A stretch of DNA of 64,000 bases from Occultella glacieicola (GCF_004353825.1 NZ_SMNA01000016.1:1-64000); one strand, 5' to 3'; shown: positions 29,382 to 62,724, counted from the first letter of the stretch. Program-made: numbers and translations. Notes: generated from the sequence alone by a model not told the origin.

Positions 29382-30692
29382 TCAGGCAGGCCGTCCCGCC
29401 GTCGTTGCTGCCCCGCGCTGTGGCGTGCGCCGGATGCCCCGGCGCAGTGGGTCGAACTGCGTCATCACGGCCGGGGTCGCCTCGCCGGTGATCTGATCGG
29501 CGAGCAGGCGTCCGGTGAGCGGGCCGAGGGCGATGCCCCACATCCCGTGCCCGCCGGCGACGTACACCCGCGGGGAGCGGGTGCGGCCGACGAGGGGCAA
29601 CCCGTCTGCGGTGCACGGCCGGGAGCCGACCCACTCCTCGGAGCGCACCTCCCAGTCGATGCCGGTGAGCATCGGCCGGGCAGCTTCGACGATCGCCGTG
29701 ATCCGGCGATCGTCCCGGGTTGCGTCCGGGCGGCGGAACTCCATCATCCCGGCCACTCGGAACCGGCCCTGCAACGGCGTGCAGGCGACCCTCTGCACGG
29801 GAAGGTAGACGGGGCGCTCCGGCAGCCGGTCCGGGCGGACCGTGAAGCTGTAGCCACGGCCGGCCTGCACGATCGCGCGCACTCCGAACGGTCGGGCGAG
29901 GGAGTTCAGGCGGGCGCCGGAGGCGATCACGACGGCGTCGACCGAGTGGGAGGAGCCGTTGCGGTCGAGTACGTGCACACCCGTGCGGCCATCGTCGAGG
30001 ATCGCGTCGACGTCGAACCCGGAGATGATCGCGCCGCCGCGGGCTCGGACCGAGTCGGCGAGCGAGTGCACGAACCTTGGCGGGTCGATGAACCGCTGCC
30101 CTTCGATTGTGATCGCGGCGCCAACGCCCTCGCCGAGTACCGGCTCGACGGCCCGTGCCTGGTCCCCGGTCAGGAACGCGTGATCGATCGGGGCGCCGTG
30201 CTCGCCGGCGTAGCGGAACTCCTTCGCGATGACCCGGGTGTCCGCCTCGGAGGCGAAGGCCGCCAGGAACGGCTCTGCGGTGCGGATCGGCTCCGCCACA
30301 CCGCCGTCGGACAGTTCGTCGTAGGAGCCCAGGGCGAGCTTGTTCAGTTCGGCGAACACGGCCATCGACGACTCCCAGCGCTTCCTGGTGCAGTGCGCGG
30401 CGAAGGTGATCAGGAACTGAAGCAGCCGGGGGTCGGCCGACGGCGGCACGTACACCGGTGAGGCCGGGTCGAAGACCGCGCGAATGCCGTATCGAAGGAG
30501 GGCGGGCTCCGGGAGCGGCAGGGTCAGCGCGGGAGCGAGCCAACCGGCGTTGCCCCAGGAGGCGTCCGCGGCCACACCGATCCGGTCGACCACGGTCACG
30601 CCGACGCCGTGCCGCTGCAGGTGCCAGGCCGTGGAGAGCCCGACGGCGCCCGCTCCGACGACAACGATGTGCTCCGGTCGTGTGCTGGTCAC
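29382..30692 (-). CDS. FAD-dependent D-amino acid dehydrogenase (DadA-like)
   Basis: GAGAVG, ASWGNAG, GRGYS, GSRPCTADGLP, GHGMWG. Confidence 0.9.
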   Translation of the reverse strand: MTSTRPEHIVVVGAGAVGLSTAWHLQRHGVGVTVVDRIGVAADASWGNAGWLAPALTLPLPEPALLRYGIRAVFDPASPVYVPPSADPRLLQFLITFAAHCTRKRWESSMAVFAELNKLALGSYDELSDGGVAEPIRTAEPFLAAFASEADTRVIAKEFRYAGEHGAPIDHAFLTGDQARAVEPVLGEGVGAAITIEGQRFIDPPRFVHSLADSVRARGGAIISGFDVDAILDDGRTGVHVLDRNGSSHSVDAVVIASGARLNSLARPFGVRAIVQAGRGYSFTVRPDRLPERPVYLPVQRVACTPLQGRFRVAGMMEFRRPDATRDDRRITAIVEAARPMLTGIDWEVRSEEWVGSRPCTADGLPLVGRTRSPRVYVAGGHGMWGIALGPLTGRLLADQITGEATPAVMTQFDPLRRGIRRTPQRGAATTAGRPA

Positions 30693-30828
30693 GGTCGCCG
30701 ACCGCCTCTCGAGTGGGTGGGTCGGAGTCCACCGTGACGCAACCAGGGCGGCCCGCGGGATAGCCGGGCGGCCAGCGTTCTGGGCTGCTGGCGGTGCGAT
30801 CGCACAGGTGGTCGGGATGGTCCGGGAC

Positions 30829-31998
30829 TCAGTCCGAGGGCGGTGGTCCGAGGGTCGCCAGGGCGAGTTGCAGCATTAGGACGAGCCGGGTGTCGGTGTC
30901 GGTCAGATCGACGCCGCACCTGTCGACGGCGCGGCGGAGCCGGTTCCGCAGCGTGTTCGGGTGGACGTGCAACTCGGCGGCCGCCGCTGCGACGTCGCCG
31001 CCATGCGCGAGATGGGCCCGCGCGGTCGTGACGAGTTCGCTGCCGTTGGTCCGGTCGTGCTCCAGGAGCCGGGCCAGCGGTGTGATCTCCGCGACGTCGC
31101 CCAGGAGACCCTCGGTCTGGAGTGCGACGATGTCGGCGAGCACGTCGTCGATGGGGGCCACCACGCCGGGCGTCCGTCGGCGGCGGAGTACCCGCAGCGC
31201 GCGGACCGCGTCCTGGTGCGAGTGGTGGGCCTCGCCGGGGGAGGCCACCCGGCGGCCGATGGCGATGACCACGTGGTCCCGGACCCGTGCCGTGGTGGCG
31301 AACATGCTGAGGACCCGGGCGACCGCCTCGTCCGGGCCGGCGAGCACGGTGCAGACGGTGGCGTCCAGTTCTGCGGTCAGTGCCCGCACACCCCGTGCCT
31401 CGAGGTGGATCGCAAGCGCCCCGGCGAGGCCCGCGGGCAGATCCGAGCCGGTGCTCGGCGCGGCCAGGGCGACCGTGACCGGGCCCGCCAGGCCCAGTTC
31501 GACGGCAACCTCGAAGGCCTCCGGGCCGCCGTCGAGGATGGCGCGAACCTGCCGCGACCGCAATCGGCCGTGCCGGTCGCTCCGGGCTCGATGGGCCAGG
31601 ATCAGCCGGGCCACCTGAGGGACGGCGGCCATGAGCGTTTGCCCCTCAGCCTCGCCGAGTCGTTCCGATCGTGCCGCCCAGATCGACCCGATGAGGGTGC
31701 CTTCGTCGCTGTGCACGGCGACCACCGCCCGGGTGACGCTGCCCTCACCGAGGTCGGCGTAAACCACCCCGGACTCGCGCCGGAGACGGTCGAACACGCC
31801 GGCCTCGGTGAGGATCGTCCGGTATCGACCGGGCACCTGACGGGCGAGGATCGTGTCGACCCGGATGTCGTCGACGGATTGGGCGTCGGCGGAGTACGCG
31901 AGGACCGTGGAGCGCTCGTCCTCGATGGTCACAGGCGCGTCGATGGACCCGGCGAGCGACTCGGCGGCCTCGAACAGGTCGTCTCCGAGGGTCTCCAT
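30829..31998 (-). CDS. PucR/CdaR-family regulator
   Basis: C-terminal HTH LHVHPNTLRNRL; N-terminal APVTIED...LAYS. Confidence 0.88.
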   Translation of the reverse strand: METLGDDLFEAAESLAGSIDAPVTIEDERSTVLAYSADAQSVDDIRVDTILARQVPGRYRTILTEAGVFDRLRRESGVVYADLGEGSVTRAVVAVHSDEGTLIGSIWAARSERLGEAEGQTLMAAVPQVARLILAHRARSDRHGRLRSRQVRAILDGGPEAFEVAVELGLAGPVTVALAAPSTGSDLPAGLAGALAIHLEARGVRALTAELDATVCTVLAGPDEAVARVLSMFATTARVRDHVVIAIGRRVASPGEAHHSHQDAVRALRVLRRRRTPGVVAPIDDVLADIVALQTEGLLGDVAEITPLARLLEHDRTNGSELVTTARAHLAHGGDVAAAAAELHVHPNTLRNRLRRAVDRCGVDLTDTDTRLVLMLQLALATLGPPPSD

Positions 31999-32092
31999 GA
32001 CGAGACTCTAGGGCCTTCGCACGCCCCACCGGTGACGAAGGACGAGAACCGCACGGACGCGTCAACCGCAGTTCCGGTACCCTTCCAGACAG

Positions 32093-32104
32093 ATTGTCGA
32101 CAAT
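32093..32104. promoter_or_regulatory. Operator ATTGTCGACAAT (island regulon)
   Basis: Perfect palindrome in the pucR/M20 divergent spacer. Confidence 0.75.
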
Positions 32105-32158: not shown

Positions 32159-33457
32159 GTGGACGTGACGGACCTGGTGGCGCTGAGGCGCCAGTTGCAC
32201 CGTCGTCCGGAACTCGGCTTCATGGAGATCGAAACGGCCGTCGCGGTGATCGTTGAGATCGGTGCCGTCGCCGACGAGGTGACCTTCGGTGCCTCGGTTT
32301 GCGACCTGACCGGTGTCGCCGGCCTGCCCGCTCCGGCCGACCTCGCGTCCGCACGGGCACGGGCCTTCGCCCGTGGCGTCGCGCCCGGCCTGGTGGAGGA
32401 ACTCGGTCACGGGGCGACCGGCATCGTGGCCACGGTCAAGGGCGACCGGCCGGGGCAGGTCACGGCGCTCCGATTCGACATGGACGCACTGCCGGTGCAC
32501 GAGGCGGATGGCGGCGAGCATCGGCCGACTCGGGTGGGCTTCGCCTCGGAGATCCCCGGCCTCATGCACGCCTGCGGGCACGACGGACATGTTGCCGTCG
32601 GTGTCGAACTGGTTCGGCGACTGGCCGCGGATCGGGACTTCGCGGGCGAGGTCCGCGCGGTGTTCCAGCCTGCTGAGGAGGGGGTCCGCGGAGCCCACGC
32701 CATGGTCGCGGCGGGAGCCGTCGACGGTGTCGACGTGATGCTCGGGATGCATCTGGGGATCGGGCTGCCCGTGGGTACGGTGGCGGCGGCCGCCGCCGGC
32801 GTCCTCGCCACCGAGAAGTGGCGGATCGTCCTCACCGGCCGTGCGGCGCACGCCGCCCTCGCGCCCGCCGAGGGGCGCAACGCGCTCCTGGGCGCCGCAG
32901 CCGCCGTGACCGCGCTGCATGCCCTGCCCCCGGAGGCAGGCGTGGTGACTCGGGTCAACGTGGGCCGACTCGTGGCTGGCACGGCCGCGAACGTCGTGCC
33001 CGAGAGTGCGATCCTCGAGTGCGAGGTACGTGCCGACGACGACGGCGCGCTCAGGCGGCTCGCGGATAGTGCCCGGCACATCGTGGCCGGTGCGGCAGCC
33101 ATGTATGAGCTCGAGGTGGCTTTCGAGGTCACCGGAACCTCCGCCGTCGCAGTCTGCGACACGGACGTGACCGAGGCGATGGCTCGGGCCGCTGCCAGGG
33201 TGCCGGGCATCGAGCATGCCCTTGCCGCAGCCACCATGACGGCCTCCGACGACGTCACCCTGATGATGTCCCACGTGCAGGGGAACGGCGGACGGGCCAC
33301 CTTGACCGTCGTCGGGGCCTCAAGCCCCGCACCGCACCACCACCCCCGGTTCGACGTGGACGAGCGGGCGCTTCCGCTCGCGGTCGCGTGGCTCGAGGCC
33401 GCTATCCGCACGGGATTCAGGGTTCCCCCAGTTGTGACGTCACAGGTACGATCCTGA
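32159..33457 (+). CDS. M20D amidohydrolase (AbgA-like)
   Basis: LHRRPE, RFDMDALP, MHACGHDGH, QPAEEG, HHHPRFD. Confidence 0.9.
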   Translation: MDVTDLVALRRQLHRRPELGFMEIETAVAVIVEIGAVADEVTFGASVCDLTGVAGLPAPADLASARARAFARGVAPGLVEELGHGATGIVATVKGDRPGQVTALRFDMDALPVHEADGGEHRPTRVGFASEIPGLMHACGHDGHVAVGVELVRRLAADRDFAGEVRAVFQPAEEGVRGAHAMVAAGAVDGVDVMLGMHLGIGLPVGTVAAAAAGVLATEKWRIVLTGRAAHAALAPAEGRNALLGAAAAVTALHALPPEAGVVTRVNVGRLVAGTAANVVPESAILECEVRADDDGALRRLADSARHIVAGAAAMYELEVAFEVTGTSAVAVCDTDVTEAMARAAARVPGIEHALAAATMTASDDVTLMMSHVQGNGGRATLTVVGASSPAPHHHPRFDVDERALPLAVAWLEAAIRTGFRVPPVVTSQVRS

Positions 33458-33478: not shown

Positions 33479-34183
33479 ATGGCTCATCTGAGCGCGACGA
33501 GTGCGACCGTCGAGGCCTACGCGCGCCTCAAGAACATGATCCTGACGAACGAGCTCTCCCCCGGCGTGGAGTTGCGTGAGGGGGGCCTCGCCGACGCGAC
33601 CGGCTACGGCCGGACTCCGGTCCGGGAGGCCCTGCAGCGGCTGGTCCACGAGGGGTTCGTCGAGGTGCGCCCACGGCAGGGGTACCGGGTCCGCCAGCTC
33701 TCCGTTGCCGGGGTCCGGGACCTGTTCGAGATGCGCCTCATCCTCGAGCCGGCTGCCGTCCAGCTCGCCATCGAGCGTGCCACGGACGCGGAGCTGGCCA
33801 CCCTCAGTGCACTTGCACACGCGACCTATGGCGTCGACCGGCCGAGCTACGAGCAGTTCCTAATCGACAATCGTGAGATCCATGTACGGATCGCCGAGGT
33901 GTCCGGCAACGCCCGGCTCGCGGACTCGCTGCGGATCCTCCTCGAGGAGATGCAGCGGCTCTACTTCGTCACGCTGGGCTCGCGCGCCGCCGTCGGTGAG
34001 CAGTTGCACGAGCACCACGACCTGTTCGACGCGATGGTCGAGCGGGCCGCCGCCACGGCACGGGGCCTGGTGGTCGACCAGATCGAGTCGAGTCGGCGGC
34101 AGGTCATCGACGCACTGCTGGGGGGTGCGGCGGGCTTGTCCCCGGGAGTCGACCAACTGATCCTGTTCGGTTCGAGTCGTTGA
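33479..34183 (+). CDS. GntR (FCD) regulator
   Basis: GRTPVREAL HTH, FCD domain. Confidence 0.92.
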   Translation: MAHLSATSATVEAYARLKNMILTNELSPGVELREGGLADATGYGRTPVREALQRLVHEGFVEVRPRQGYRVRQLSVAGVRDLFEMRLILEPAAVQLAIERATDAELATLSALAHATYGVDRPSYEQFLIDNREIHVRIAEVSGNARLADSLRILLEEMQRLYFVTLGSRAAVGEQLHEHHDLFDAMVERAAATARGLVVDQIESSRRQVIDALLGGAAGLSPGVDQLILFGSSR

Positions 34184-34204: not shown

Positions 34205-34237
34205 ATTGTTGACAATTTCGAGCTCATTGTCGACAAT
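34205..34237 (+). promoter_or_regulatory. Tandem operators coinciding with a TTGACA-N17-GACAAT promoter
   Basis: ATTGTTGACAAT (34205-34216) and ATTGTCGACAAT (34226-34237), 21-bp period. Confidence 0.8.
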
Positions 34238-34339: not shown

Positions 34340-35407
34340 ATGACCTCGGCCCGTGTCGCTGCCATCCCGGGCGACGGGATCGGGACCGAGGTGATGGACT
34401 CGGCTAAGGCGGTCCTCGCCCGCCTGCTCCCGCTGACGGGCGACAACATCGCCTGGACGGACCTGGACTGGTCCTGTGAGCGCTACCTCACGGAGGGCGC
34501 ACTGATGCCCGACGACGGCCTGGGCCTCCTACGGGAGCACGACGCGGTCCTGCTCGGTGCGGTCGGCTGGCCCGGCGTACCGGACCACGTCTCGCTGTGG
34601 GGCTTACTGATTCCGATCCGGCGCATGTTCCAGCAGTACGTGAACCTGCGCCCGGTACGCGTCATGGAAGGTGTGCCGTCACCGCTGCGGCCCGACCTGG
34701 CGGAGGGCGTCGACCTGCTCATCGTGCGCGAGAACTCTGAGGGGGAGTACTCCGAGATCGGCGGGCGGTTCGGAGCCGGCACTCCGGTCGAGTCGGCGTT
34801 CCAGCAGAGCGTGTTCACGCGCACCGGCGTCGAGCGCATCGCTCGCTTCGCCGCGGAGCGGGCCGAGCGGCGTCGTGGACGGATCGTCGCCGCGACGAAG
34901 TCCAACGGGATCATCCACACCATGCCGTTCTGGGACGAGGTGGTGGCCGAGACGACGGCGCACTACAGCGTCGAGACGACCTTCGAGCACATCGATGCGC
35001 TTGCGGCCAAGCTCGTGCTCCACCCGGCCCGCTACGACGTGGTGCTCGGCAGCAATCTCTTCGGTGACATCCTCAGTGATCTGGCCGCCGGAGTCTGCGG
35101 GAGCATCGGAATCGCACCGTCGGCCAACGTCGACCCCACCGGCACCTACCCGTCCATGTTCGAGCCGGTGCACGGATCCGCACCGGACATCGCCGGCCGT
35201 GGGATCGCCAACCCCGTGGGCATGCTCTGGTCCACCGTGATGATGCTCGAGCATCTCGGCGCGGCGCGGGCCGCCGGCCTCCTGATGGAGGCCATCGCGG
35301 AGACCCTGCGGGACCCGGCTACCCGGACCGCAGACATCGGCGGCACCGCCGACACCGCCGCGGTGACCGACGCGGTGATATCGCACGTGACCCGGAGTGC
35401 CGCATGA
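34340..35407 (+). CDS. Tartrate dehydrogenase/decarboxylase (D-malate dehydrogenase family)
   Basis: IPGDGIG, VPDHVSLWGLLIPIRR, RENSEGEY, TKSNG, SNLFGDILSD, EPVHGSAPDIAG. Confidence 0.92.
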   Translation: MTSARVAAIPGDGIGTEVMDSAKAVLARLLPLTGDNIAWTDLDWSCERYLTEGALMPDDGLGLLREHDAVLLGAVGWPGVPDHVSLWGLLIPIRRMFQQYVNLRPVRVMEGVPSPLRPDLAEGVDLLIVRENSEGEYSEIGGRFGAGTPVESAFQQSVFTRTGVERIARFAAERAERRRGRIVAATKSNGIIHTMPFWDEVVAETTAHYSVETTFEHIDALAAKLVLHPARYDVVLGSNLFGDILSDLAAGVCGSIGIAPSANVDPTGTYPSMFEPVHGSAPDIAGRGIANPVGMLWSTVMMLEHLGAARAAGLLMEAIAETLRDPATRTADIGGTADTAAVTDAVISHVTRSAA

Positions 35408-36552
35408 GCAACGACGCGGAGGTCGCCGTCGTCGGCCTCGGCACGGTCGGGAGCATGGCGCTATGGCGACTGGCCGAACGGGGCGTGCCGGTGCACGGCT
35501 ATGAACGGTTCGGTATCGCCAACACCCGCGGCGCCTCCGGTGGGCAGACGCGCAGGTTCGCGGCCGCGAGCCAGTCCGAGCCCTTCAAGACCCCACTGGC
35601 TCTCGCTGCGCTCGAGCTGTGGCGTGCGCTCGAGGAGACGACTGGGCAGTCTCTGCTTACGCTCACCGGCGGGATGATCCTCGGCCCCCGCGACACCCCG
35701 GCCCTGGTCAACGCCATCCGGTCCATGCAGGACAACGCCCTCCCGCATGAGGTTCTGGACGCCGACGAACTGCACGCCAGGTTCCCCGAGCACCTCATCC
35801 GAGCCGGCGACACCGCGCTCGTAGACGGGTCGACCGGGTTCCTCCGCCCCGAGCGCAGCATCCTGAGTGCCGTCGGCGCGGCTCGCGCGCGTGGCGCGAA
35901 GGTGCACGACCACACCAGGGTCCTCGCGGTCGAACCGGACGGCGATCGCGTCTGCGTGCGCACGGCGGACGGCGTCCGACGATACGGCCGCGTGGTGGTG
36001 GCCCCCGGCGCCTGGGCACCGCAACTGCTCGGCGATCTGGGGCCCGAGATCACACCGCGACGGCTGACTCAGGCCTGGTACCTGCCGAGGGACGTCACCC
36101 GGTACCGCGCCGACGTCTTCGGGGTGTTCGAGCGGGTCGGCGACGTCCGGGCCTACGGCTTCCCCTCCGTGGACGGCGCGACCGTGAAGGTCGGTGTCTG
36201 GACGCGTCCGCACCCGGTGGTCGAGGATCTCGAGCGACTCGACCAGTGGGTCGCGCAGGCCTGGATCGACGAGATCCGGGAGGTCATCGCCACCTACCTG
36301 CCCGGCCTTCATCCGGACCCGACCAACCTCTCGACCCACATCGAGGGGTACAGCCCGGACCAGCTTCCAGTGGTGGGGCCGTCACCGATCTCGGAGCGCG
36401 TGCTGATCGGCGCCGGCTTCTCCGGCGGCGGATTCAAGTTCGCTCCCGTGATGGGCGAGATACTCGCCGATTATGCCCTCACCGGTGCCACGACGAGGGA
36501 TCTCAGGTTCCTGCGTCCGGACCGGTTCGCCTCAGCGGAGCCCAGGGCATGA
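35404..36552 (+). CDS. Monomeric sarcosine/N-methyltryptophan oxidase-like FAD oxidase (SolA-like)
   Basis: GLGTVGS, GASGGQTR, GFLRPE, GFSGGGFK. Confidence 0.88.
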   Translation: MSNDAEVAVVGLGTVGSMALWRLAERGVPVHGYERFGIANTRGASGGQTRRFAAASQSEPFKTPLALAALELWRALEETTGQSLLTLTGGMILGPRDTPALVNAIRSMQDNALPHEVLDADELHARFPEHLIRAGDTALVDGSTGFLRPERSILSAVGAARARGAKVHDHTRVLAVEPDGDRVCVRTADGVRRYGRVVVAPGAWAPQLLGDLGPEITPRRLTQAWYLPRDVTRYRADVFGVFERVGDVRAYGFPSVDGATVKVGVWTRPHPVVEDLERLDQWVAQAWIDEIREVIATYLPGLHPDPTNLSTHIEGYSPDQLPVVGPSPISERVLIGAGFSGGGFKFAPVMGEILADYALTGATTRDLRFLRPDRFASAEPRA

Positions 36553-36574: not shown

Positions 36575-37309
36575 GTGACCGGCCCGGAGTCCACCCCGTC
36601 GGCCACCGATCGGGTGGCGCTGGTCACCGGCGGCAACCGCGGCATCGGGTTCGAGATCGCCCGGCAGCTCGGGGCCGCGGGGCTCCGGGTCGCTTTGGGC
36701 TGCCGCCGGCCCGCCGATGCCGCCGACCGGGTAACAGCCCTGCGGGACGCCGGCACGGAGGCCACCGCCGTCGAACTCGACGTGATCGCGCCGGGTAGCC
36801 CTGGACGAGCCGTCGCCACCGTCATGGAGGTCTACGGCCGTCTGGACGTGCTCGTGAACAACGCCGGGATCGCGATCGACGCATGGCCGAGCCACCGCCC
36901 GTCCGAGCCCGACCTGGACCGGGTCCGCACCACCATCGAGACGAACCTGTTCGGGGCCTGGGCGTGTGTGGGGGCGGCGGTACCGGCGATGCGCGCGAAT
37001 CGCTACGGCCGGATCGTCAACCTCTCGAGCACGATGGCCTCCATCGAGCTGACCGACGATCCGAGGTCCCCGGCCTACCGGGTCTCCAAGTCCGCCCTGA
37101 ACATGCTCACGGTGGTCGTCGCCGAGGATCTGCGGGCGGACGGCATCCTCGTCAACGCGGCCTCGCCCGGCTACACCCGCTCCGACATGAGTCCGAAGGC
37201 GACGCGACCGGTCGAGGACGGGGCGGACACGCCCGTGTGGCTGGCGACCCTTCCGAACGACGGCCCGACCGGCGGGTTCTTCTACGAGCGCGAGCCGCTG
37301 CCGTGGTGA
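36575..37309 (+). CDS. Short-chain dehydrogenase/reductase
   Basis: TGGNRGIG, NNAG, YRVSK. Confidence 0.92.
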   Translation: MTGPESTPSATDRVALVTGGNRGIGFEIARQLGAAGLRVALGCRRPADAADRVTALRDAGTEATAVELDVIAPGSPGRAVATVMEVYGRLDVLVNNAGIAIDAWPSHRPSEPDLDRVRTTIETNLFGAWACVGAAVPAMRANRYGRIVNLSSTMASIELTDDPRSPAYRVSKSALNMLTVVVAEDLRADGILVNAASPGYTRSDMSPKATRPVEDGADTPVWLATLPNDGPTGGFFYEREPLPW

Positions 37310-43036: not shown

Positions 43037-43133
43037 GAGTTTCCTTCTCTCTCTTGTCCGGTCACGATGCCCTGCAGAGCTGCGGTGGATCGCCGGTGCG
43101 GGCCGAATGGGCGGCCCGCACCGGCGGGTCTGG

Positions 43134-44522
<1,389 letters not shown>

Positions 44523-44527: not shown

Positions 44528-44571
44528 ACGTTACAAGCGGCTGGAAGGGTAGTCAAGTAATTGTCGACAAT
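44528..44571 (-). promoter_or_regulatory. Promoter TTGACT-N17-TAACGT with adjacent operator ATTGTCGACAAT
   Basis: -35 at 44556-44551, -10 at 44533-44528, operator at 44560-44571; another copy at 44642-44653. Confidence 0.7.
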
Positions 44572-47003: not shown

Positions 47004-47060
47004 GGCGCAACCTCCAGGTCGAACGGTCAGATGATCGGCGCGAACGGGCGGTCGACGCCG

Positions 47061-47699: not shown

Positions 47700-47744
47700 A
47701 CCGTAGCGAGCGACTTCTCGTCGTGTCAACAGGTTGTCGACAAT
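47700..47744 (-). promoter_or_regulatory. Promoter TTGACA-N18-TACGGT with operator GTTGTCGACAAT
   Basis: -35 at 47729-47724, -10 at 47705-47700, operator at 47733-47744. Confidence 0.7.
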
Positions 47745-47949: not shown

Positions 47950-47983
47950 ACTGTTGACAATTAAGTCCGAGGCTGCCTAGCCT
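47950..47983 (+). promoter_or_regulatory. Promoter TTGACA-N18-TAGCCT with operator ACTGTTGACAAT over the -35
   Basis: Read directly; upstream of the HAD-oxidase-ABC operon. Confidence 0.7.
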
Positions 47984-56244: not shown

Positions 56245-57255
56245 GTGGACACCCATGGCGGGCACGATCACGGTCCCGCGGATCACGATGATGACGAGCA
56301 TGGCCGGGTGGGAGCCGGCCGGTCGAAACATGGCCATGGTCACGGGCACAACCACAGCCACGGGATGACCGCCACCGGGCGCCACCGCAAGCGTCTGATC
56401 GCCGTCCTGTGCATCACGGGATCGGTCATGGTCGCCCAGGCGGTCGGGGCCTGGATCTCCGGCTCGCTCGCGCTGCTCGCCGACGCAGGGCACATGCTGA
56501 CGGACTCGGCGGGCCTGGCGATCGCCCTGGTTGCGGCGTCGCTGGCCATGCGGCCGGCCACCGACGCGCGTACGTATGGCTGGCAGCGGGCCGAGGTGCT
56601 CGCGGCGCTCGCGAACGCGACGATTCTGTGTGCGGTAGGCGTCCTGGTCATCCGCGAAGCCTTCCTCCGCTGGAACACCGAACCCGAGATTCAGGGCGGC
56701 CTCATGCTCTGGGTCGCAGTCGGCGGGGCCGTCGCGAACGCCGTCTCGTTGATCATCCTGCTGCGAGCGAGCGGCGAGTCCCTGAACATGCGCGGGGCCT
56801 ACCTCGAGGTTCTCGGCGACCTGCTCGGCTCGATCGCCGTCATCGTCGCGGCCATCGTGATCCTGACGACAGGGTGGCTGCGCGCCGATGCGTTGGCCTC
56901 GTTCGCGATCGGGGTCCTGATCCTGCCCAGGGCGGTGTCACTGCTGCGGGACGTCGCCAGGGTCCTGATGGAGGCGACGCCGCAGGGAGTCGATCTCAGT
57001 GAGGTCAGGTCGCACATGGAGGCCCTGCCCGGCGTCGAGGAGGTGCACGATCTGCACGTCTGGACGATCACGTCGGGCGTCCCGGTGCTTTCGGCGCACG
57101 TGGTCCTCGACAGCGCCGAGGTAGATCGCGAGCTCGAGTGTGCGGCCCTGGACAGTCTGGCGGACTGCCTCCGCGGCCACTTCGACGTGGACCACTGCAC
57201 GTTCCAGATCGAGCCGCAGGGGCACGCCCACCATGAGCATGCACTGCATGCGTGA
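56245..57255 (+). CDS. CDF Zn/Co/Cd exporter (CzcD/ZitB-like)
   Basis: His-rich ends, ADAGHMLTD, TYGWQRAE, AYLEVLGD, VHDLHVW, HCTFQIE. Confidence 0.92.
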   Translation: MDTHGGHDHGPADHDDDEHGRVGAGRSKHGHGHGHNHSHGMTATGRHRKRLIAVLCITGSVMVAQAVGAWISGSLALLADAGHMLTDSAGLAIALVAASLAMRPATDARTYGWQRAEVLAALANATILCAVGVLVIREAFLRWNTEPEIQGGLMLWVAVGGAVANAVSLIILLRASGESLNMRGAYLEVLGDLLGSIAVIVAAIVILTTGWLRADALASFAIGVLILPRAVSLLRDVARVLMEATPQGVDLSEVRSHMEALPGVEEVHDLHVWTITSGVPVLSAHVVLDSAEVDRELECAALDSLADCLRGHFDVDHCTFQIEPQGHAHHEHALHA

Positions 57256-57311: not shown

Positions 57312-57328
57312 ATACCCCCTAGGGGTAT
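57312..57328. promoter_or_regulatory. CsoR-type operator ATACCCC-CTA-GGGGTAT
   Basis: Palindrome with C/G tracts, 55 bp upstream of copZ. Confidence 0.7.
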
Positions 57329-57383: not shown

Positions 57384-57593
57384 ATGTCGACTGCCGTATT
57401 CGAGGTGACGGGTCTGCACTGCAGCAGCTGTGCCGGGAAGGTGTCGAGCGCCGTCAACACGGTCGACGGCGTCACGGGGGTGGAGCTCGACCTCGCCACC
57501 GGTCGGCTCTCGGTCACGTCCGGGGCGCCGATCGACGACAGCGCCATTGTGGCCGTGGTCACCGAGGCCGGCTACCAGGTCGCGCCCGCCTGA
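57384..57593 (+). CDS. copZ: Heavy-metal-associated (HMA) copper chaperone
   Basis: GLHCSSC and EAGY motifs, 69 aa, GAGGGAG RBS. Confidence 0.85.
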   Translation: MSTAVFEVTGLHCSSCAGKVSSAVNTVDGVTGVELDLATGRLSVTSGAPIDDSAIVAVVTEAGYQVAPA

Positions 57594-58863
57594 GCACGCC
57601 CGCGCCCGGCGCGCCGTGCGGGCCGGAGCAGGACGCGCCCGTGGTCAGAGGGGACTGTTGCCGGAGCGAGCGTGACTCGACCGCGGGGTGCCGCAGCCGA
57701 CGCTCCAGCGCGGTGCCGACGCTCACGCCCGCCACGGCGAGGCCGCACGTCACGAGCGTCGCCTCGGGGCCGAAGGTCGCGATCACCGCGCCACCCGCGA
57801 TCAGTCCGACAGCCAGTGTGGATTCAAGCACCACGGCCTGCCCGGTGAACGCGGCGCGTCGCTCGGCGCCCTGGCTGCCGCGCGAGAGTTCGGTCACGGT
57901 CGCGGTGGCGCCGAACGCCATGAATACCCCGCCGCAGGCCGAGACGACCGAGACCGCCAGGTAGGACGAGGTCCCAACCGCGCCGAGGCCGGCGAAGCAC
58001 AGGCCCAGACCGACGAATGACACCAGCATCGTCGCGTAGAGCGGCAGTCGGCGGACGGCAGCCACGGCGACGCCGGCACCGACGATGGTGCCCAGCCCGT
58101 AGCCGCCGTTGGCTGCGGTCAGCAGGAGCCCCGGCTCCCCGGTCGCGTCGCCCATCACGACCAGTCCGAGGCTGAAGGAGAACCAGAGCAGGCTCAGCGT
58201 CCCCCGCATGATCAGTCCGCGGACCAGATCCGGCTGCCTCCGGATCACCGCGAGGATGCTCCGGCCGACGCTCTTCGGCTCGTGGCGCATCGGCGAGTAC
58301 GGCACGAGGAGCAGGGCCACGGCCGCTGTGCCGAGCGCGGCGGCCTCCAGCCACAACAGCGGTGCGGCCCCGACGAACTGCACGCCGAGGGCGCCGAGGG
58401 TCGGGCCCAGTGCCACCGTGATGCGCCGGGTGAGCTCGCGCGTCGCCATCATCCGGACCGATCCGCCAGGTGATATCGCGTCGGCGAAGTCGGCCAGCAG
58501 ACTGTCCTGGCCGGGGCCGCCGAGCGCGGCAGCGGCACCGACGACCAGTCCGCTTGCGGCGAGTGACCAGAGTTCGAGTTCGCCGACGAGCATACTCACG
58601 GGAACGATCAGCACGCCGAGCGCCTGGACCAGGACAACGAGGGCCAGGGCCCGTCCGCCGTCGATCCGCCTCCGTAGCGCCCGGGCCCACCAGGGTGACG
58701 TCAGCATCGGGATGCCGATCATGCCGCCCACGAGTCCCGTGGCAGCCACGGAGCCCGTGCCCTGAAGGGCCACCAACGGCAGGGCGAGTGCCGAGACGCG
58801 CGCGCCGATCTCGGTCAGGAAGGACGTCGCCAGGATCGTGACGGCTGCCGTTGTATGCCTCAT
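57559..58863 (-). CDS. MFS transporter
   Basis: About 12 hydrophobic segments; divergent from LysR. Confidence 0.8.
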   Translation of the reverse strand: MRHTTAAVTILATSFLTEIGARVSALALPLVALQGTGSVAATGLVGGMIGIPMLTSPWWARALRRRIDGGRALALVVLVQALGVLIVPVSMLVGELELWSLAASGLVVGAAAALGGPGQDSLLADFADAISPGGSVRMMATRELTRRITVALGPTLGALGVQFVGAAPLLWLEAAALGTAAVALLLVPYSPMRHEPKSVGRSILAVIRRQPDLVRGLIMRGTLSLLWFSFSLGLVVMGDATGEPGLLLTAANGGYGLGTIVGAGVAVAAVRRLPLYATMLVSFVGLGLCFAGLGAVGTSSYLAVSVVSACGGVFMAFGATATVTELSRGSQGAERRAAFTGQAVVLESTLAVGLIAGGAVIATFGPEATLVTCGLAVAGVSVGTALERRLRHPAVESRSLRQQSPLTTGASCSGPHGAPGAGVLRRARPGSRPR

Positions 58864-58923: not shown

Positions 58924-58940
58924 CATAGGCTGGATCTATG
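58924..58940. promoter_or_regulatory. LysR box CATAG-N7-CTATG over the lysR start
   Basis: T-N11-A dyad in the MFS/LysR divergent spacer. Confidence 0.6.
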
Positions 58941-59834
58941 AGGGAGTTCCTGTCGATCGATGACCTGCGGTTGGTCCGGGAGGTAGCTCGTCGGGGTTCG
59001 GTCGGGGCGGCCGCCGCCCGTCTCGGCGTCAGTCAGCCGACCGCGAGCCAGCGGCTCGCGGCACTCGAGCGTCGAAGCGGCCTGCGGCTGTTCCAACGTG
59101 ACACCACGGGTGCCAGACCGACGCTCGCCGGCCGCGAGCTCGCGGACCAGGCCGATCGGATCCTCGGCTCGATCGACTCCCTCCCGGAACTGATGCGGGC
59201 GACGGAGGGGCGGTCCTCACGCACGATCGGGACAGTTGCCTCGTTGGCGGCGGTGCTCTACCCCGCCCTCGAACTGCTTCTCCCGGAACTAGCCGTCCAC
59301 CAGGTGACCGATCACGGACCGGCTCTGGTCGATGCCGTCGCCGACGGCTCGATGGACGCGGCCTTCATCGGCGTCCCGATGCAGACCGCGCTGCCGGCTG
59401 GCCTGTCCGTCACGGTCTTCCACCGCGACGACCTCAGCATCCTCCGACCTGCCGACGCGGCGTCGCTCGGCACCGGACGCCAGCCGTACGCGGGACGGAC
59501 GGTCTTCGCCTACACCTACGACCCTGCTCTGCACGAGTCGCTCAGCACGATCGCCGCACTCGGTGGCCGGCCCCGACGGGCCGCGACCGCCGAGACAGCG
59601 GTGACCCTGGCCCGGGTCCGGGGGGAACTCGCCTTGCTCCCGGCCAGTCTCGCCCACCGGAACCTGCGCGGACTCGATGAGGTCCTGCCAGCGCCGCGGC
59701 GCCGTCGTGTGCAACTCGCGATGGTGACGCGTCGCCCAGGGCCGCAGGCCCTGGTCGAGGTGCTGCCGGAGCTCGGCGAGGTGCTGAAGCACCCACACCT
59801 ACCGGATCCGCCGACTGCGGCCGTGCCGGTATGA
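58938..59834 (+). CDS. LysR-family regulator
   Basis: GSVGAAAARLGVSQPTASQRLAALE, LFQR, PTLAG. Confidence 0.9.
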   Translation: MREFLSIDDLRLVREVARRGSVGAAAARLGVSQPTASQRLAALERRSGLRLFQRDTTGARPTLAGRELADQADRILGSIDSLPELMRATEGRSSRTIGTVASLAAVLYPALELLLPELAVHQVTDHGPALVDAVADGSMDAAFIGVPMQTALPAGLSVTVFHRDDLSILRPADAASLGTGRQPYAGRTVFAYTYDPALHESLSTIAALGGRPRRAATAETAVTLARVRGELALLPASLAHRNLRGLDEVLPAPRRRRVQLAMVTRRPGPQALVEVLPELGEVLKHPHLPDPPTAAVPV

Positions 59835-59896: not shown

Positions 59897-60286
59897 CTAC
59901 GCACCGCCCTTGCGGTACGCGATCTTCTTGGAGACGAGTCCGTCACGGAACTCGTAGAAGTCCGCGCCGTGGACGGTGCTGGTGGTGCCGTCCTCGGCCG
60001 TCGAGGTTGAGGTCCACTCGGAGAAACCACGGTTGCCGATCGTGAACCGCTCGCCGTAGACGTGGTTCGCATGGCCGGGTTGACCAACGCCCATCTCGAT
60101 CAGCGCAGCCCGGATCTCGTCGTGACCGACGTATCGCCTTCCCCATGGCTCGGGGCCGAAGGACGCCTCGTAGAGACCGTCCGCGGTCATACCGGTGACG
60201 ATCCCTTCGACGTCCCCGTCGGACCAGGCCTGTTGGTATCGGCCGAAGTCCTCGTCGTTGACCTCACCCTGTGGGTTCTCGGGCAT
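59897..60286 (-). CDS. NTF2/SnoaL-like protein
   Basis: AWSDGD, GHDEIR, GADFYEFRDG; AAGGAG RBS. Confidence 0.85.
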   Translation of the reverse strand: MPENPQGEVNDEDFGRYQQAWSDGDVEGIVTGMTADGLYEASFGPEPWGRRYVGHDEIRAALIEMGVGQPGHANHVYGERFTIGNRGFSEWTSTSTAEDGTTSTVHGADFYEFRDGLVSKKIAYRKGGA

Positions 60287-60335: not shown

Positions 60336-61004
60336 TCAGACGCCGAGGATCCGGACGACCTCGTCGAGCGAAGCGACGTCGTAGTGGTGGTAGAAGGGGG
60401 CCGCGGGCTCCCACCCGCGGTTGAGGTACACGGTGTTCTTGACGCCGAGGTCGGTCGCCGGCTGGAGGTCGTAGCGTGGGCTGGAGGAGACGTGCATGAC
60501 CTCCTCGGGCAAGCAGCCGAGCTGGGCGAACATGTACTCGAACGCCTGCAGGCGAGGCTTGTAGGCCTGAGCCTGCTCGGCGGAGAACGCCCGGTGGAAC
60601 GGTGCGCCGAGTTTCTCCACGTTCCGGCCGATCTGGCTGTCCGCGGCGTTCGAGAGGATCACCAAGGGAAACCTGCTGGCGAGTTTCGCAAGCGGAACGG
60701 GGATGTCCGGGTGTGGGCCCCAGTTCGGGATGTCGCCGAAGATGGCGGACGAGTGCTCCGGTAGGTAGGGCGCACCGGTCCTACGGCAGGTCCGCTGGTA
60801 GGCGCGGTCGATCACCACGTCGTACGGGCGCCAGTCGCCCATGACCTCGTCCATGCGGTAATAGCTGAACACCTCGAGGAATTTGCCGATGAGGTCCGGT
60901 CCGATGATGTCCTTCGTCACGTCCTTGGTAATCGTACTCATCTGGAAGTCGGTCAACGTGCCGTACATGTCGAAGGTGATGAACTTGGGCTCCGGCGTGT
61001 TCAT
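60336..61004 (-). CDS. Second HAD type II-like hydrolase (paralogue of 48084-48758)
   Basis: FDMYGTL, WGPHPD, PLVILSNA, AYKPR. Confidence 0.9.
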   Translation of the reverse strand: MNTPEPKFITFDMYGTLTDFQMSTITKDVTKDIIGPDLIGKFLEVFSYYRMDEVMGDWRPYDVVIDRAYQRTCRRTGAPYLPEHSSAIFGDIPNWGPHPDIPVPLAKLASRFPLVILSNAADSQIGRNVEKLGAPFHRAFSAEQAQAYKPRLQAFEYMFAQLGCLPEEVMHVSSSPRYDLQPATDLGVKNTVYLNRGWEPAAPFYHHYDVASLDEVVRILGV

Positions 61005-61083: not shown

Positions 61084-61123
61084 GACGGCATGCCCGACAT
61101 TCGACTCGGCCGAGCATGCCGTC
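61084..61123 (-). terminator. Intercistronic stem-loop after the solute-binding protein gene
   Basis: GACGGCATGC/GCATGCCGTC inverted repeat, extendable to about 15 bp with G-U pairs on the minus strand. Confidence 0.55.
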
Positions 61124-61161
61124 ACATTGTTTGACTGTCGGTGGGAGTTCTCCGGGTCGAT

Positions 61162-62724
61162 CTATTCGGAGATCGACAGGGCCGTCGTGAACACGTATTG
61201 GTCGAGTAGGTTCGGTACGAATCCCTCGACGGCGTTGGTGTGGGCGTAGGTTGCGGTTTCGTGCACGATGTAGACGGTGACAGCATGCTCCTGCAGATAG
61301 GTGGCGATGTCGGCGTAGGCTGCGTATCGCTCCTCGTCGTCAAAGGTGCTGGCGGCGTCCGCGATCATCGTGTCGACCTCGGGATCACAGAACTGCGAGA
61401 TGTTGAACCCGCCCTCGCAGGTGTAGTCGGAACTCAGCATGCCGCCCGGGTCAGGCAGATCGGTCAGGGCGTTGCGGGAGAGGAGGGTGGCGCCATAGTC
61501 GCCGGCGAGGAGGTTTGCCTCGATGGCGGCGTAGTCCGGCGTGGTGATCGAGACCGTGATGCCGATCTCCGCAAGTTGGGACTGGATGACCGCTGCCAGG
61601 TTCGCGAACTCGGGCCGGCTGGTGTAGGCGATGAGTTCGAAGTCGAGGGAGGCCGGGTCGATGCCGGCGTCCTCGAGGATCGCGGTCGCGGCGGCGGGGT
61701 CGCCGCCGAGGGCGCCGGCGCCTTCGGGGGCCCAGGGTGCCGACGGCGCGAACGGGCCGACGGCGGGGGTCGCCGCGCTCTCGTAGACGGAGCCGGCGAT
61801 CGCCTCCAGGTCGAGGGCGGCCTGCACGGCCAGTCGTGCGGCCTCGTCGGCGAACGGGCCGGTCTCGGTGTTGAAGTACAACCCTGTGGTCCGAGCGGTC
61901 TCGTTGGTGGAGACGGTCACGTCCGGGTTCGGCTCGAGCAGGGCGATGTCGGTCACCGGCACTGACGAGGCGATGTCCACCTCGCCCGTCTCGAGCTGGG
62001 TCGTCCGGGTCGCGCCGTCGGGCAGGATCGAGATCGTGCCGCCGGTCAGAGCGACCTCGCCGCCCCAATAGTTCTCGTTGCGGATGATCTCCAGACCCGT
62101 GTCGTAGTTGACGTCGACGATCTCGAACGGCCCGGTGCAGGTGCCCACCACGTCGATCTGTGCGCCTGTGAATGCCGCCTCCGCAAGGATCCCGGCCGAG
62201 GGTGTGCTCAGCCGCAGAGGCAGCAGAGGATCCGGGACCGGCGTGGTGACCAGTACCGTCCCGTCCTCGCCGGCCTCGATGGCGGTCACCGTCGAGGGGT
62301 TGAACGACCGGGCTGCGGTGTCCGACTCGAGGGTGTGGGTCAGCGCGTTGGCGACTGCCTCGGGTGTCAGGTCGGTGCCATCCTGGAACTGAACACCCTC
62401 GCGGATCGTGAACGACCAGGTCAGATCGTCGACCTGTGACCACTCGGTGGCGAGGGACGGTTCCAGCTCGCCCGACTCGGTGTAACGGGCGAGCGGTTCG
62501 AGACAGCCGGCGCGGGTGAGGATGAAGGCATCGTCGGTGCCCAGCGCGAAGCTGGCGTCGATGGTCAGCCACTCTGCGAGGGTGATGTGGCCGCCGGCGT
62601 CGCCGCCGGAGCCGCCGGGCTCGTCTCCTCCGGTTCCACCACCGGAACCATCGTCGAAACTACATGCGCCGAGCGCCAGCGTGACAGCGACTATGCCGCT
62701 GAGGCGGGGAATCGAACGTCTCAT
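61162..62724 (-). CDS. Family-5 ABC solute-binding lipoprotein (NikA/DppA-like)
   Basis: LGAC lipobox, PSLATEW, FQDGTDLT, GTCTGPF, NENYWG. Confidence 0.9.
   Translation of the reverse strand: MRRSIPRLSGIVAVTLALGACSFDDGSGGGTGGDEPGGSGGDAGGHITLAEWLTIDASFALGTDDAFILTRAGCLEPLARYTESGELEPSLATEWSQVDDLTWSFTIREGVQFQDGTDLTPEAVANALTHTLESDTAARSFNPSTVTAIEAGEDGTVLVTTPVPDPLLPLRLSTPSAGILAEAAFTGAQIDVVGTCTGPFEIVDVNYDTGLEIIRNENYWGGEVALTGGTISILPDGATRTTQLETGEVDIASSVPVTDIALLEPNPDVTVSTNETARTTGLYFNTETGPFADEAARLAVQAALDLEAIAGSVYESAATPAVGPFAPSAPWAPEGAGALGGDPAAATAILEDAGIDPASLDFELIAYTSRPEFANLAAVIQSQLAEIGITVSITTPDYAAIEANLLAGDYGATLLSRNALTDLPDPGGMLSSDYTCEGGFNISQFCDPEVDTMIADAASTFDDEERYAAYADIATYLQEHAVTVYIVHETATYAHTNAVEGFVPNLLDQYVFTTALSISE

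Follow-up and report, generated by a model that had tools for sequence, protein, structure and literature searches.

Gene content and distribution of the island

We analysed a stretch of 64,000 nucleotides from Occultella glacieicola (GCF_004353825.1, NZ_SMNA01000016.1:1-64000), hereafter the window, which comprises positions 1-64000 of contig C7 in a genome of 5.34 Mb and 71% GC. A first-pass annotation, made from the sequence alone, had proposed that positions 29,382 to 62,724 hold an island that imports a metal-bound, nitrogen-containing chelator, draws carbon and nitrogen from it and exports the released metal. Pfam and NCBIfam scans recovered every gene named in that annotation at the position it had given, among them an ATP-binding cassette (ABC) importer with a family-5 solute-binding protein (SBP), five FAD oxidoreductases (DAO1 to DAO5), two CDF-family metal exporters (CDF1 and CDF2), a tartrate/D-malate dehydrogenase (TDH), an aldehyde dehydrogenase (ALDH2), a succinate semialdehyde dehydrogenase (SSADH)-like enzyme and an MmgE/PrpD protein (Table 1). 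The same scans revealed genes that had gone unnamed: two haloacid dehalogenase (HAD) type II hydrolases (HAD1 and HAD2), a GNAT acetyltransferase, an antibiotic biosynthesis monooxygenase (ABM)-like protein, a SnoaL-like protein, a short-chain dehydrogenase (SDR), two GntR/FCD regulators, and PucR, LysR and major facilitator superfamily (MFS) genes.

The island, with a GC content of 69%, is patchily distributed, since few related genomes hold matches to its SBP, HAD1 or DAO5: the SBP has no close ortholog in three genomes of the same genus and one (47%) among 40 relatives, while HAD1 matched 6/401 genomes of the class and DAO5 8/401 genomes of the order, the own genome being included in both counts. 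The HAD clade is also present in 364 plasmid records, chiefly from rhizobia, Ralstonia and Burkholderia, and the island is a real feature, conserved across Actinomycetota and Alphaproteobacteria.

A shared predicted operator links importer, enzymes and exporters

The regulon operator to which the first-pass annotation had referred is real: eight copies of the palindrome TTGTCGACAA at up to one mismatch were found against 0.76 expected, all of them within 32094-63467, and they precede M20, TDH, CDF1, GNAT/HAD1 and the SBP gene. We infer that a GntR/FCD protein binds it, GntR2 being a candidate for the operator-binding repressor. At CDF1 the operator stands 3 nt upstream of the promoter-like site. 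When exporter promoters of related loci were scanned with a matrix made from the nine operator sites of the window (6 sites in 800 kb of controls), an operator was found near the start of 9/13 VIT1 genes and 10/35 CDF genes, mostly of CDF1 type. CDF2-type genes need no operator of their own, because they are embedded in catabolic operons: at five loci (L018, L020, L028, L036 and L041) they are flanked by an ABC ATPase gene and an aspartase gene, with stops and starts that overlap or nearly touch, and at two others (L027 and L047) the CDF gene is followed directly by a HAD gene.

Two further operator copies (C20:465853 and 470018) lie in a second cluster on contig C20 (C20:463580-471571, equal to L098:7580-15571), which comprises GntR, arylmalonate-decarboxylase-family, 2-hydroxyacid dehydrogenase, DUF3830, class III aminotransferase and SSADH genes. 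Its aminotransferase shares 70% identity with the type that Nocardioides-like island loci encode, so that the cluster may form a second part of the regulon. The copper chaperone-like gene copZ does follow CDF2, as had been noted, and is here rejected as a regulon member: it has its own palindrome, which we take to be of CsoR type and which also precedes P-type ATPase loci on contigs C20 and C21, so that copZ likely answers to copper.

Metal exporters travel with the catabolic core and its importer

Loci related to the island were retrieved with an SBP alignment of 40 orthologs; the best 80 of 149 SBP-ortholog loci were taken with flanks of up to 10 kb, and the addition of five plasmid loci gave 85. 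Loci holding HAD, DAO5, TDH or ALDH2 were classed as core loci, a split made blind to exporters, and a CDF, P-type ATPase, VIT1 or NicO gene within ~10 kb counted as an exporter; 40 loci round paralogous family-5 SBPs, chosen by rank and contig room, served as controls. An exporter was present in 40/50 core loci versus 2/35 transporter-only loci, and in 1/40 (BLAST) or 2/40 (HMM) of the controls. Counted by genome, exporters occurred in 38/44 core versus 1/31 transporter-only genomes and a CDF in at least 30/44 core genomes, figures to be read with the exporter queries having been built from these same loci and with kin that are not independent. In the own genome, the exporter HMMs picked up remote CDFs and P-type ATPases as well. 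A neighbourhood survey of the kind suggested in the first-pass annotation thus finds that CDFs usually accompany the catabolic genes.

Different lineages hold different exporters. Rhodococcus and Nonomuraea have recruited the CDF1 type, Nocardioides and Microlunatus the CDF2 type with VIT1, two Arthrobacter VIT1, and Microvirga and Phyllobacterium P-type ATPases; in metagenome-assembled genomes (MAGs) of alphaproteobacteria, CDFs of a third clade occur alongside P-type ATPase, HMA and NicO genes. With three CDF clades as well as P-type ATPase, VIT1 and NicO families involved, the recurrence is convergent. The CDFs of the window have Cation_efflux and ZT_dimer domains and site-A residues in transmembrane helices (TM) 2 and 5, in CDF1 in the variant form HNxxH (TM2)/HxxxD (TM5); HNxxH is kept in all CDF1 orthologs with HARAD in TM5, and the first 160 residues of CDF1 (44462-43980) contain 35 histidines with an HD repeat. 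The CDF1 clade occurs in 65/301 genomes of the phylum, a count that includes one unpublished genome (G546).

A check independent of the SBP search used loci anchored on HAD1 and DAO5. Two genomes, G872 and G104, have the clade SBP together with exporters, G872 being nearly syntenic with CDFs at 75% and 73%. No exporter was found in 40 kb at G959 and G911, which are without the clade SBP, nor at G1054, which has the full core and is likewise without it. Six Streptomyces-like loci had no exporter in the central 20 kb (one flank holds a distant P-type ATPase), and in three of the six PotD-like or family-3 SBPs adjoin the core; three rhizobial plasmid regions list no exporter in gene tables that are incomplete. 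Four places in G716, G756 and G1044 were loci already counted and were excluded; one place in G1044 was at a contig edge. As cores without the clade SBP show no exporter, it is the co-regulated clade SBP, rather than the enzymes, that the exporter tracks.

The alphaproteobacterial-type loci (L045, L048, L053-L056, L059-L062, L064, L071 and L082) share a layout in which P-type ATPase-HMA-CDF genes diverge from SBP-HAD-ABC-GntR-DUF1007-NicO. No oxidase gene lies within 10 kb, and an insert that varies between loci, in some with PIN-domain genes, separates HAD and permeases. A predicted aminoglycoside phosphotransferase gene (aphA15, L107:977-1330) is listed beside the Phyllobacterium plasmid cluster.

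The same importer family occurs alone behind an iron box

The regulation of the SBP gene differs between core and transporter-only loci. Scanned with a 19-bp IdeR box consensus, 27/35 transporter-only loci have an IdeR/DtxR-type box upstream of the SBP at up to 5 mismatches (25/35 at up to 4), as do 2/50 core loci and 0/40 controls; the GntR operator precedes the SBP in 1/35, 27/50 and 0/40, respectively. In the own genome the scan returned 13 sites, including sites before a FecB-type SBP and a siderophore-interacting gene. IdeR-like boxes were present at 7/13 VIT1 and 0/35 CDF genes in relatives, and once upstream of CDF1 in the window (44620). IdeR is described as repressing iron uptake and activating storage genes (PMC11672702).

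The IdeR-boxed SBPs form one clade of 28 rows, almost all from Micrococcaceae, nested in the SBP family (support 97; the SBP tree was made with FastTree and the HAD tree is an unfinished quick tree, both serving for clade grouping only). They keep R139, R171, R278, R370, R417 and D422 and the four cysteines of the family. Since a lone importer stands behind an IdeR-type box, the ligand of the SBP family is probably an iron chelate. In Arthrobacter, Kocuria and kin (L063-L097) an MFS gene closes the IdeR-boxed importer operon at 16 loci, and this operon is a candidate iron-chelate uptake system in its own right. At one locus (L014, G033:C10:50613-55580) the clade importer stands alone, a distant SDR being the only island enzyme within ~40 kb; the promoter of this importer was truncated in the box scan. 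A search for nicotianamine synthase (PF03059) matched 0/5 genomes, the own genome included (the control matched 1/14), which gives no sign of a self-made chelator of nicotianamine type; a self-made metallophore was rejected on this count.

The HAD hydrolases resemble azetidine-2-carboxylate hydrolases

The best PDB matches of HAD1 are L-azetidine-2-carboxylate (AZC) hydrolases (E ~1e-24), with true dehalogenases at 1e-9 to 1e-4; in Foldseek searches with a model of pLDDT 95, AZC hydrolases took ranks 1-6 (TM 0.79-0.81). D13 of HAD1 aligns with D12 of AZC hydrolase, the motif-I Asp nucleophile. HAD1 and HAD2 also exceed the cut-off of the L-2-haloacid dehalogenase type II model TIGR01428 (161 and 148 bits versus 125). 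Haloacid dehalogenation as their role was rejected, dehalogenases matching at 1e-9 or weaker as compared with 1e-24. By sequence the two HADs are not AZC-hydrolase orthologs and form a separate clade, HAD2 having the motifs DFQ and SSSPRYD. We read the shift in motifs as a move to N-substituted azetidines, but it could also mark a different substrate class.

Azetidine-2-carboxylate is the head group of nicotianamine and of the mugineic acids, and the other units of these chelators would leave as aspartate semialdehyde or malic semialdehyde on oxidative C-N cleavage. Transamination and oxidation of (2R)-4-amino-2-hydroxybutanoate would give (R)-malate, a substrate of tartrate/D-malate dehydrogenase. 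That compound is the trapped product in the title of PDB entry 8HP7, and AZC hydrolysis has been described as being followed by a GABA (γ-aminobutyrate)-type route (PMC8016842; bioRxiv 10.64898/2026.09.25.754441). With AZC hydrolases as their nearest structures, the HADs, which are the most informative genes and had been missed in the first-pass annotation, point to nicotianamine or mugineic acids rather than iminodisuccinate (IDS). Aspartase recurs in 7 loci. The pyridoxal phosphate (PLP) enzyme would match the hydroxylated unit in the middle of mugineic acid, and the tetronate genes that flank the core in two alphaproteobacteria would suit ring-hydroxylated chelator forms.

Up to four HAD paralogs occur in one cluster (L109-L110 of G104, L027, L033 and L182-L183 of G1054), and HAD subclades keep different partners: (a) DAO5 and ABC genes; (b) an APH-type kinase, an aminotransferase and a ROK-family protein; (c) RidA, a PLP enzyme, an SDR and another oxidase. 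A PALP-family enzyme, presumably resembling ACC (1-aminocyclopropane-1-carboxylate) deaminase, adjoins a Streptomyces-like core (L112:16626-17642).

Comparison with known systems

Catabolism of ethylenediaminetetraacetate (EDTA) and nitrilotriacetate employs the Emo monooxygenase, an iminodiacetate oxidase and the family-5 Epp importer. These clusters and the island have in common family-5 import of an aminopolycarboxylate and flavin-dependent C-N cleavage. In contrast to EDTA clusters, no luciferase-like/FMNH2-dependent monooxygenase or flavin reductase was present among the 38 open reading frames (ORFs) scanned. The PDB matches listed for DAO2, DAO4 and DAO5, the three searched, included no iminodiacetate oxidase. 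EDTA importers take the free chelator and are not known to have a co-regulated exporter. Degradation of IDS and ethylenediaminedisuccinate (EDDS) by epimerase and C-N lyase shares with the island an MmgE/PrpD gene nearest the IDS epimerase 2HP3 (B. subtilis IRG1, at 5e-48, is close behind), but the island ORFs include no Lyase_1 (aspartase/fumarase superfamily) gene, the nearest aspartase-like gene being on contig C16. MmgE/PrpD was found in none of the 104 related loci scanned for it, and five island genomes hold matches of 31-35% or none, so that the gene by which the first-pass annotation had drawn the link to IDS epimerase does not travel with the island. IDS as default substrate was accordingly rejected, MmgE not being conserved and the island having no C-N lyase.

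The lower routes of ectoine (Doe) and putrescine (Puu) degradation use a deacetylase, a class III transaminase and semialdehyde dehydrogenases, enzyme types also encoded in the island, to reach aspartate or succinate. Unlike them, the island has no ectoine hydrolase or gamma-glutamylation enzyme among its ORFs; nor does it have the Pot-type importer of Puu, PotD-like SBPs occurring only in the Streptomyces-like relatives, and its HADs, D-malate dehydrogenase and exporters lie outside Doe and Puu. The Nik/Cnt importers (S. aureus NikA 4XKR, B. halodurans 3T66, CntA) provide the nearest structures and profiles of the SBP and permeases, and the Arg-rich conserved set of the SBP would fit a polycarboxylate ligand. 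The SBP nevertheless falls below the Nik/Cnt equivalog cut-offs (Opp5A_nikA 250/600, NikA 148/393, CntA 77/800 bits), and while Nik/Cnt serve metal supply, the island importer, for which the own genome offers no nicotianamine synthase gene, would feed catabolism and efflux. The AZC hydrolase pathway (Pseudomonas A2C, PDB 3SMV/8YWO; 8HP5-8HP7; Aspergillus AzhA, PMC8016842) shares with the island the HAD fold and Asp nucleophile, a downstream transaminase and semialdehyde dehydrogenase, and a GNAT nearby; the island differs from that pathway, as far as it is described there, in its family-5 ABC importer, several amine oxidases and metal exporters. In its working the island thus resembles EDTA- and IDS-degrading clusters, with predicted chemistry of AZC-hydrolase type, yet it belongs to none of these classes, and the IDS and EDTA analogies say how the island works rather than what it is.

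Published data

We found no nicotianamine or phytosiderophore catabolic cluster of this composition in the open-licence literature, in keeping with the first-pass annotation, which knew of no such pathway, and no catabolic regulon co-inducing metal efflux in the same literature. The same literature contained no structural paper on AZC hydrolase and none on 7FGP, and PMC8679237 contributed nothing further. A report of nicotianamine catabolism in Agrobacterium may exist; if so, the enzyme core would be partly known, and the efflux coupling and the IdeR-boxed form would still be new. Genes and taxa metabolising phytosiderophores are described as currently unknown in a study that reports phytosiderophore degradation by P. 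fluorescens SBW25 (PMC7786132, 2021). A table in that study contains the run PFLU_RS19725-19825, with GABA transaminase, tartrate dehydrogenase, SSADH, deacetylase, FAD oxidoreductases, ABC genes, haloacid dehalogenase type II, cupin, DSD1-family enzyme, acetyltransferase and ALDH, a composition that matches the island by gene names only.

In rhizobia, pRL120609-10 were up 6.4- and 7.7-fold in the alfalfa rhizosphere only, the adjacent dehalogenase rising 4.5-fold (P 0.096) (PMC3333776). Judging by gene order, they probably correspond to locus L103, the SBP of which is only 23% identical to that of the island. The induction in alfalfa supports a plant-derived substrate and is neutral on which one. 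Part of the Rhodococcus jostii cluster occurs in one phyllosphere metatranscriptome (X1), where a 1,796-nt contig at depth 130 spans the CDF1 end, GNAT, the ABM-like gene and the aminotransferase start; it was not counted as evidence, because contigs cannot show a transcript and, with 29/30 bins covered, DNA is possible.

Interpretation and alternatives

Taken together, these observations make it probable that the island couples catabolism of a metal chelate to metal efflux. The proposal of the first-pass annotation is thereby partly upheld: the comparative evidence (co-travel of exporters, operators and operons, the IdeR-boxed form) supports its central inference well, and the arguments originally given had to be corrected. 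We give an even chance to the fuller scheme, in which a regulon with GntR operators imports a metal-loaded chelator, likely of nicotianamine or mugineic type, eats it and expels the metal through the CDFs; that the substrate is specifically of nicotianamine or mugineic-acid type is a question on which the balance is about level.

The gene content, operators, synteny and contrast in regulation behind this scheme are observed, whereas all of its substrates and reactions are predictions. In this scheme, the family-5 ABC transporter would import the metal-loaded aminopolycarboxylate chelator. HAD1 and HAD2 would open the ring of the azetidine, possibly in N-substituted form, with inversion in the manner of AZC hydrolase, and DAO5 and the SolA-like oxidases would cut secondary amines, amine cleavage yielding aspartate semialdehyde, (R)-2-hydroxy-4-aminobutyrate or diaminobutyrate, and (R)-malic semialdehyde. 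D-malate would then arise by way of the aminotransferase and the SSADH-like enzyme and be converted to pyruvate by tartrate/D-malate dehydrogenase, and ALDH2 would produce aspartate, to be deaminated by aspartase in many homologous clusters. GNAT and M20 could form an acetyl protect-and-release cycle, the PLP enzyme may handle 3-hydroxyaspartate from hydroxylated mugineic acids, and the CDF exporters of the same operons would expel the released metal.

Several observations weigh against this scheme. On the side of the importer, (i) the IdeR-boxed SBPs are changed at D65, R71, Y367, S416 and H488, and as one lineage they represent one event, in which the ligand may have shifted; (ii) no solved structure reaches more than 29% identity to the SBP, and although the AlphaFold model of the SBP (Foldseek, VIA-align) matches S. 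aureus NikA best (Z 41.2, rmsd 3.2, 461 aligned, 24%), AapF, a non-metal binder, is fourth at Z 39.1, with GbpA, DppA and AgaA within a few Z units, and scores as close as those of NikA and AapF do not decide the ligand. Among the hydrolases, HAD1 has 25-28% structural identity to AZC hydrolase, its motifs are changed (DWE to NFQ, AESLYHD to TSHIWYD), and rhizobial HAD-IA neighbours are nearer the characterised AZC hydrolase (E 1e-40) than HAD1 is; the PotD-like and family-3 SBPs of Streptomyces-like cores fit small amines or amino acids. As regards efflux, the operator matrix found no site at 22 P-type ATPase and 13 NicO genes; six of the 44 core genomes are without a detected exporter, of which one (L096, an IdeR-type SBP beside the core) fits the pattern and five are exceptions to it (Kribbella, Actinophytocola, Aminobacter, one MAG and one truncated contig); the 13 alphaproteobacterial-type loci are one lineage; and three plasmid loci lie in generally metal-rich regions. 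Simple read-through from CDF1 is opposed by a hairpin (43091-43126), possibly a terminator or processing site, that separates CDF1 from the next gene in the window, while no such hairpin was seen in the CDF1-GNAT gaps of the relatives folded. In the published data, the SBW25 run was not induced and trended down with phytosiderophores more than 2-fold higher, and its SSADH under iron deprivation (log2 -1.13, adjusted P 0.099) is mildly adverse (PMC7786132); the rhizobial relative was induced in alfalfa, which is no grass, and not in sugar beet (PMC3333776).

The same logic could serve another aminocarboxylate metallophore, of opine type (staphylopine/pseudopaline-like), aspergillomarasmine-like, or IDS/EDDS, with the HADs acting on some other activated C2-N or C2-O bond. 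All of the exporter and IdeR evidence fits this equally, as would the MmgE/PrpD match to IDS epimerase, the likeness of DAO4 to 7FGP (which we take to be a flavin opine dehydrogenase), two plasmids on which clade SBPs lie beside (2Fe-2S)/FAD oxidoreductase sets and an ornithine cyclodeaminase-family gene, and a recurrent submodule of PLP enzyme, RidA and SDR that would also fit aminoacrylate-forming breakdown. We consider it rather unlikely, given that MmgE is missing from the 104 related loci scanned, that neither a C-N lyase nor a histidine-catabolic gene is among the island ORFs, that the AZC-hydrolase-like HAD is the most constant companion (40/80 loci) and that D-malate dehydrogenase fits the (R) product.

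A non-chelating amine as the substrate, be it free AZC, an N-alkyl amino acid or a derivative of a polyamine, with exporters as hitchhikers on mobile metal-resistance regions, is improbable: exporter genes either stand behind the catabolic operator or show translational coupling within operons, four exporter families recur only where the clade SBP is co-regulated, and the same SBP clade is IdeR-boxed when alone, and hitchhiking explains none of these. It would account for the resemblance of GNAT, deacetylase, omega-aminotransferase, SSADH and DAO5-type oxidase to polyamine/GABA routes, for Streptomyces-like cores with PotD-like or family-3 SBPs and no exporter, and for the operator-bearing aminotransferase/SSADH cluster on C20, which has no exporter among the genes scanned; the CDF1 clade being common on its own, the high rank of AapF and the position of plasmid loci near cue, cop and chromate genes are also in its favour. 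That the system mainly acquires metal, taking up the chelate and cutting it to set the metal free, with incidental use of carbon and nitrogen and exporters that buffer overshoot, is decidedly improbable. Here the IdeR-boxed Micrococcaceae form, the IdeR-like boxes at VIT1 and upstream of CDF1, and the alphaproteobacterial-type loci, in which within 10 kb only a HAD accompanies the importer amid CDF, P-type ATPase, HMA and NicO genes, must be set against the predominance of the GntR operator over the iron box at core-locus SBP promoters (27/50 versus 2/50), a full lower pathway to pyruvate and fumarate that metal release does not need, and exporters, which oppose acquisition.

Returning to catabolism of a chelate of nicotianamine or mugineic type, it is possible, though we lean somewhat against it, that the island represents the missing bacterial pathway for nicotianamine/phytosiderophore degradation, with one importer family used both for iron piracy (as a lone importer under IdeR) and for chelator eating (with azetidine-opening hydrolases, amine oxidases and a D-malate route under GntR), unrelated exporters recruited repeatedly into the regulon to rid the cell of metal taken in with the chelator, and HAD paralogs for phytosiderophores that differ in hydroxylation. 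Microbial breakdown limits the duration of phytosiderophore action in soil, and for this process the island supplies candidate genes and an operator, together with hosts that are non-pathogenic and can be cultured (Rhodococcus opacus B4, R. jostii, Nonomuraea, Nocardioides and Arthrobacter). With its switch between IdeR and GntR, a single importer family provides a clean natural experiment in which metal is either nutrient or waste, and the scheme, if true, would assign a role to the large family that plant-associated bacteria carry under the annotation haloacid dehalogenase type II.

Features of the island and its surroundings

Table 1. Genes and elements of the window. Counts over 80 refer to the best 80 of 149 SBP-ortholog loci (up to 10 kb each side), counts over 104 to the related loci scanned for MmgE/PrpD, DAO1, PucR and MFS/LysR.
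Feature	Position	Strand	Remarks
DAO1, D-amino-acid-dehydrogenase-like FAD oxidoreductase	29382-30692	-	0/104 loci
PucR-family regulator	30829-31998	-	0/104 loci
Operator ATTGTCGACAAT upstream of M20-GntR1 unit	32093-32104		
M20 amidohydrolase	32159-33457	+	TIGR01891 above cut-off, DoeB2 model below; 7/80 loci; predicted N-acetyl-amino-acid deacetylase partnering GNAT
GntR/FCD regulator 1 (GntR1)	33479-34183	+	
Two operator copies	34205-34237		overlap promoter-like site ahead of TDH
TDH, tartrate/D-malate dehydrogenase (decarboxylating)	34340-35407	+	16/80 loci; TIGR02089 475 bits (cut-off 470, passed), NF006048 468 (cut-off 501, missed)
DAO2, SolA/monomeric sarcosine oxidase-like secondary-amine oxidase	35404-36552	+	NF008425 above cut-off; best PDB matches sarcosine oxidases; 9/80 loci
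SDR, accessory	36575-37309	+	3/80 loci
Fold-type-III PLP enzyme, D-threonine aldolase/D-threo-3-hydroxyaspartate dehydratase family	37306-38388	+	about equally near both enzymes; start overlaps SDR stop (GTGA); 9/80 loci
MmgE/PrpD protein	38381-39739	-	best PDB match IDS epimerase 2HP3, E 5e-50
SSADH-like aldehyde dehydrogenase	39762-41261	-	26/80 loci; predicted to convert malic semialdehyde to D-malate
Class III (omega) aminotransferase	41263-42516	-	class III aminotransferase in 23/80 loci; predicted to act on 2-hydroxy-4-aminobutyrate or diaminobutyrate
ABM-like protein, 146 aa	42596-43036	-	7/80 loci; Atlas feature matches 0.97 (probably its own cluster) and 0.92 to PF03992
GC hairpin, 15 bp, no U tail	43091-43126	-	3' of CDF1 stop
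CDF1 metal exporter	43134-44462	-	TIGR01297 above cut-off; alternative start in-frame GTG at 44522
CDF1 promoter-like site	44528-44571	-	operator 44571-44560, then TTGACT-17 nt-TAACGT
IdeR/DtxR-like box upstream of CDF1	44620-44638		4 mismatches to consensus; one of the 13 sites in the own genome
Second operator copy upstream of CDF1	44642-44653		
DAO3, second SolA-like oxidase	44663-45811	-	48% identical to DAO2
DAO4, FAD oxidoreductase	45834-47003	-	best PDB match 7FGP, E 2e-48
GNAT acetyltransferase	47061-47606	-	8/80 loci; directly 3' of CDF1 in relatives
Two operator copies, divergent GNAT/HAD1 promoter region	47733-47744, 47950-47961		
HAD1, sister clade of AZC hydrolase	48084-48758	+	HAD in 40/80 loci; predicted to act on an N-substituted azetidine, opening its ring
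DAO5, core FAD oxidoreductase	48787-50064	+	34/80 loci; no close solved relative in PDB searches; predicted C-N-cleaving amine oxidase
ABC permeases, Nik/Opp type	50113-51057, 51044-51946	+	orthologs in 65/80 and 64/80 loci
GntR/FCD regulator 2 (GntR2)	51954-52703	+	inside ABC operon; 26/80 loci
Two ABC ATPases	52727-53719, 53716-54762	+	
ALDH2	54759-56234	+	22/80 loci; no close solved relative in PDB searches; predicted to convert aspartate semialdehyde to aspartate
CDF2, ZitB/CzcD-like exporter	56245-57255	+	HxxxD/ExxxD; 10 nt after ALDH2 stop
Palindrome ahead of copZ	57312-57328		
CopZ-like HMA chaperone	57384-57593	+	128 nt 3' of CDF2
MFS transporter, accessory	57559-58863	-	divergent from LysR; MFS/LysR in 1/104 loci
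LysR regulator, accessory	58938-59834	+	
SnoaL-like protein	59897-60286	-	adjoins SBP-HAD2 pair in G872
HAD2, paralog of HAD1 (44-47%)	60336-61004	-	
SBP, family-5 solute-binding lipoprotein, distinct clade	61162-62724	-	PF00496 E 5e-73
Operator copies	63332-63468		600-750 nt upstream of SBP; overlap promoter-like site
IdeR-boxed siderophore genes	63485-64000 and L017:3485-8790 (C7:63485-68790)		

All five FAD amine oxidases of the first-pass annotation are present, but the leftmost, DAO1, does not travel with the island: orthologs of 54-65% occur elsewhere in 3/5 island genomes, and it is probably a separate, PucR-controlled unit at the island edge, to which PucR would belong as well. Both were rejected as regulon members by their absence from the related loci. 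An Rfam scan of 28000-64000 gave no match, no tRNA was found in the window, and no flanking repeat indicating an integration site was found at the island. In R. opacus B4, ALDH2 is followed by ArsR and aspartate ammonia-lyase genes.

DAO3, DAO4 and GNAT (44663-47606) fill the slot where relatives have an SBP gene between CDF1 and HAD1; the only SBP in the window is the copy beside HAD2 and SnoaL, like the second SBP of G872. Between this SBP gene and its operators lies an ORF of 106 codons (63030-63350) with no Pfam match and uncertain gene status. At its right end the island borders on genes for an ABC importer of iron-siderophores and for a siderophore-interacting protein, both of them accompanied by an IdeR-like box. 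The left half of the window (885-29122) holds plant-cell-wall and acid-sugar genes, namely a RuBisCO-like protein (885-2132), pectinesterase, BNR-repeat protein, GH127, a DHDPS-family enzyme, a PdxA-family gene with DeoR, a second Opp-type ABC system and GH43, a gene set that suggests a plant-associated diet.

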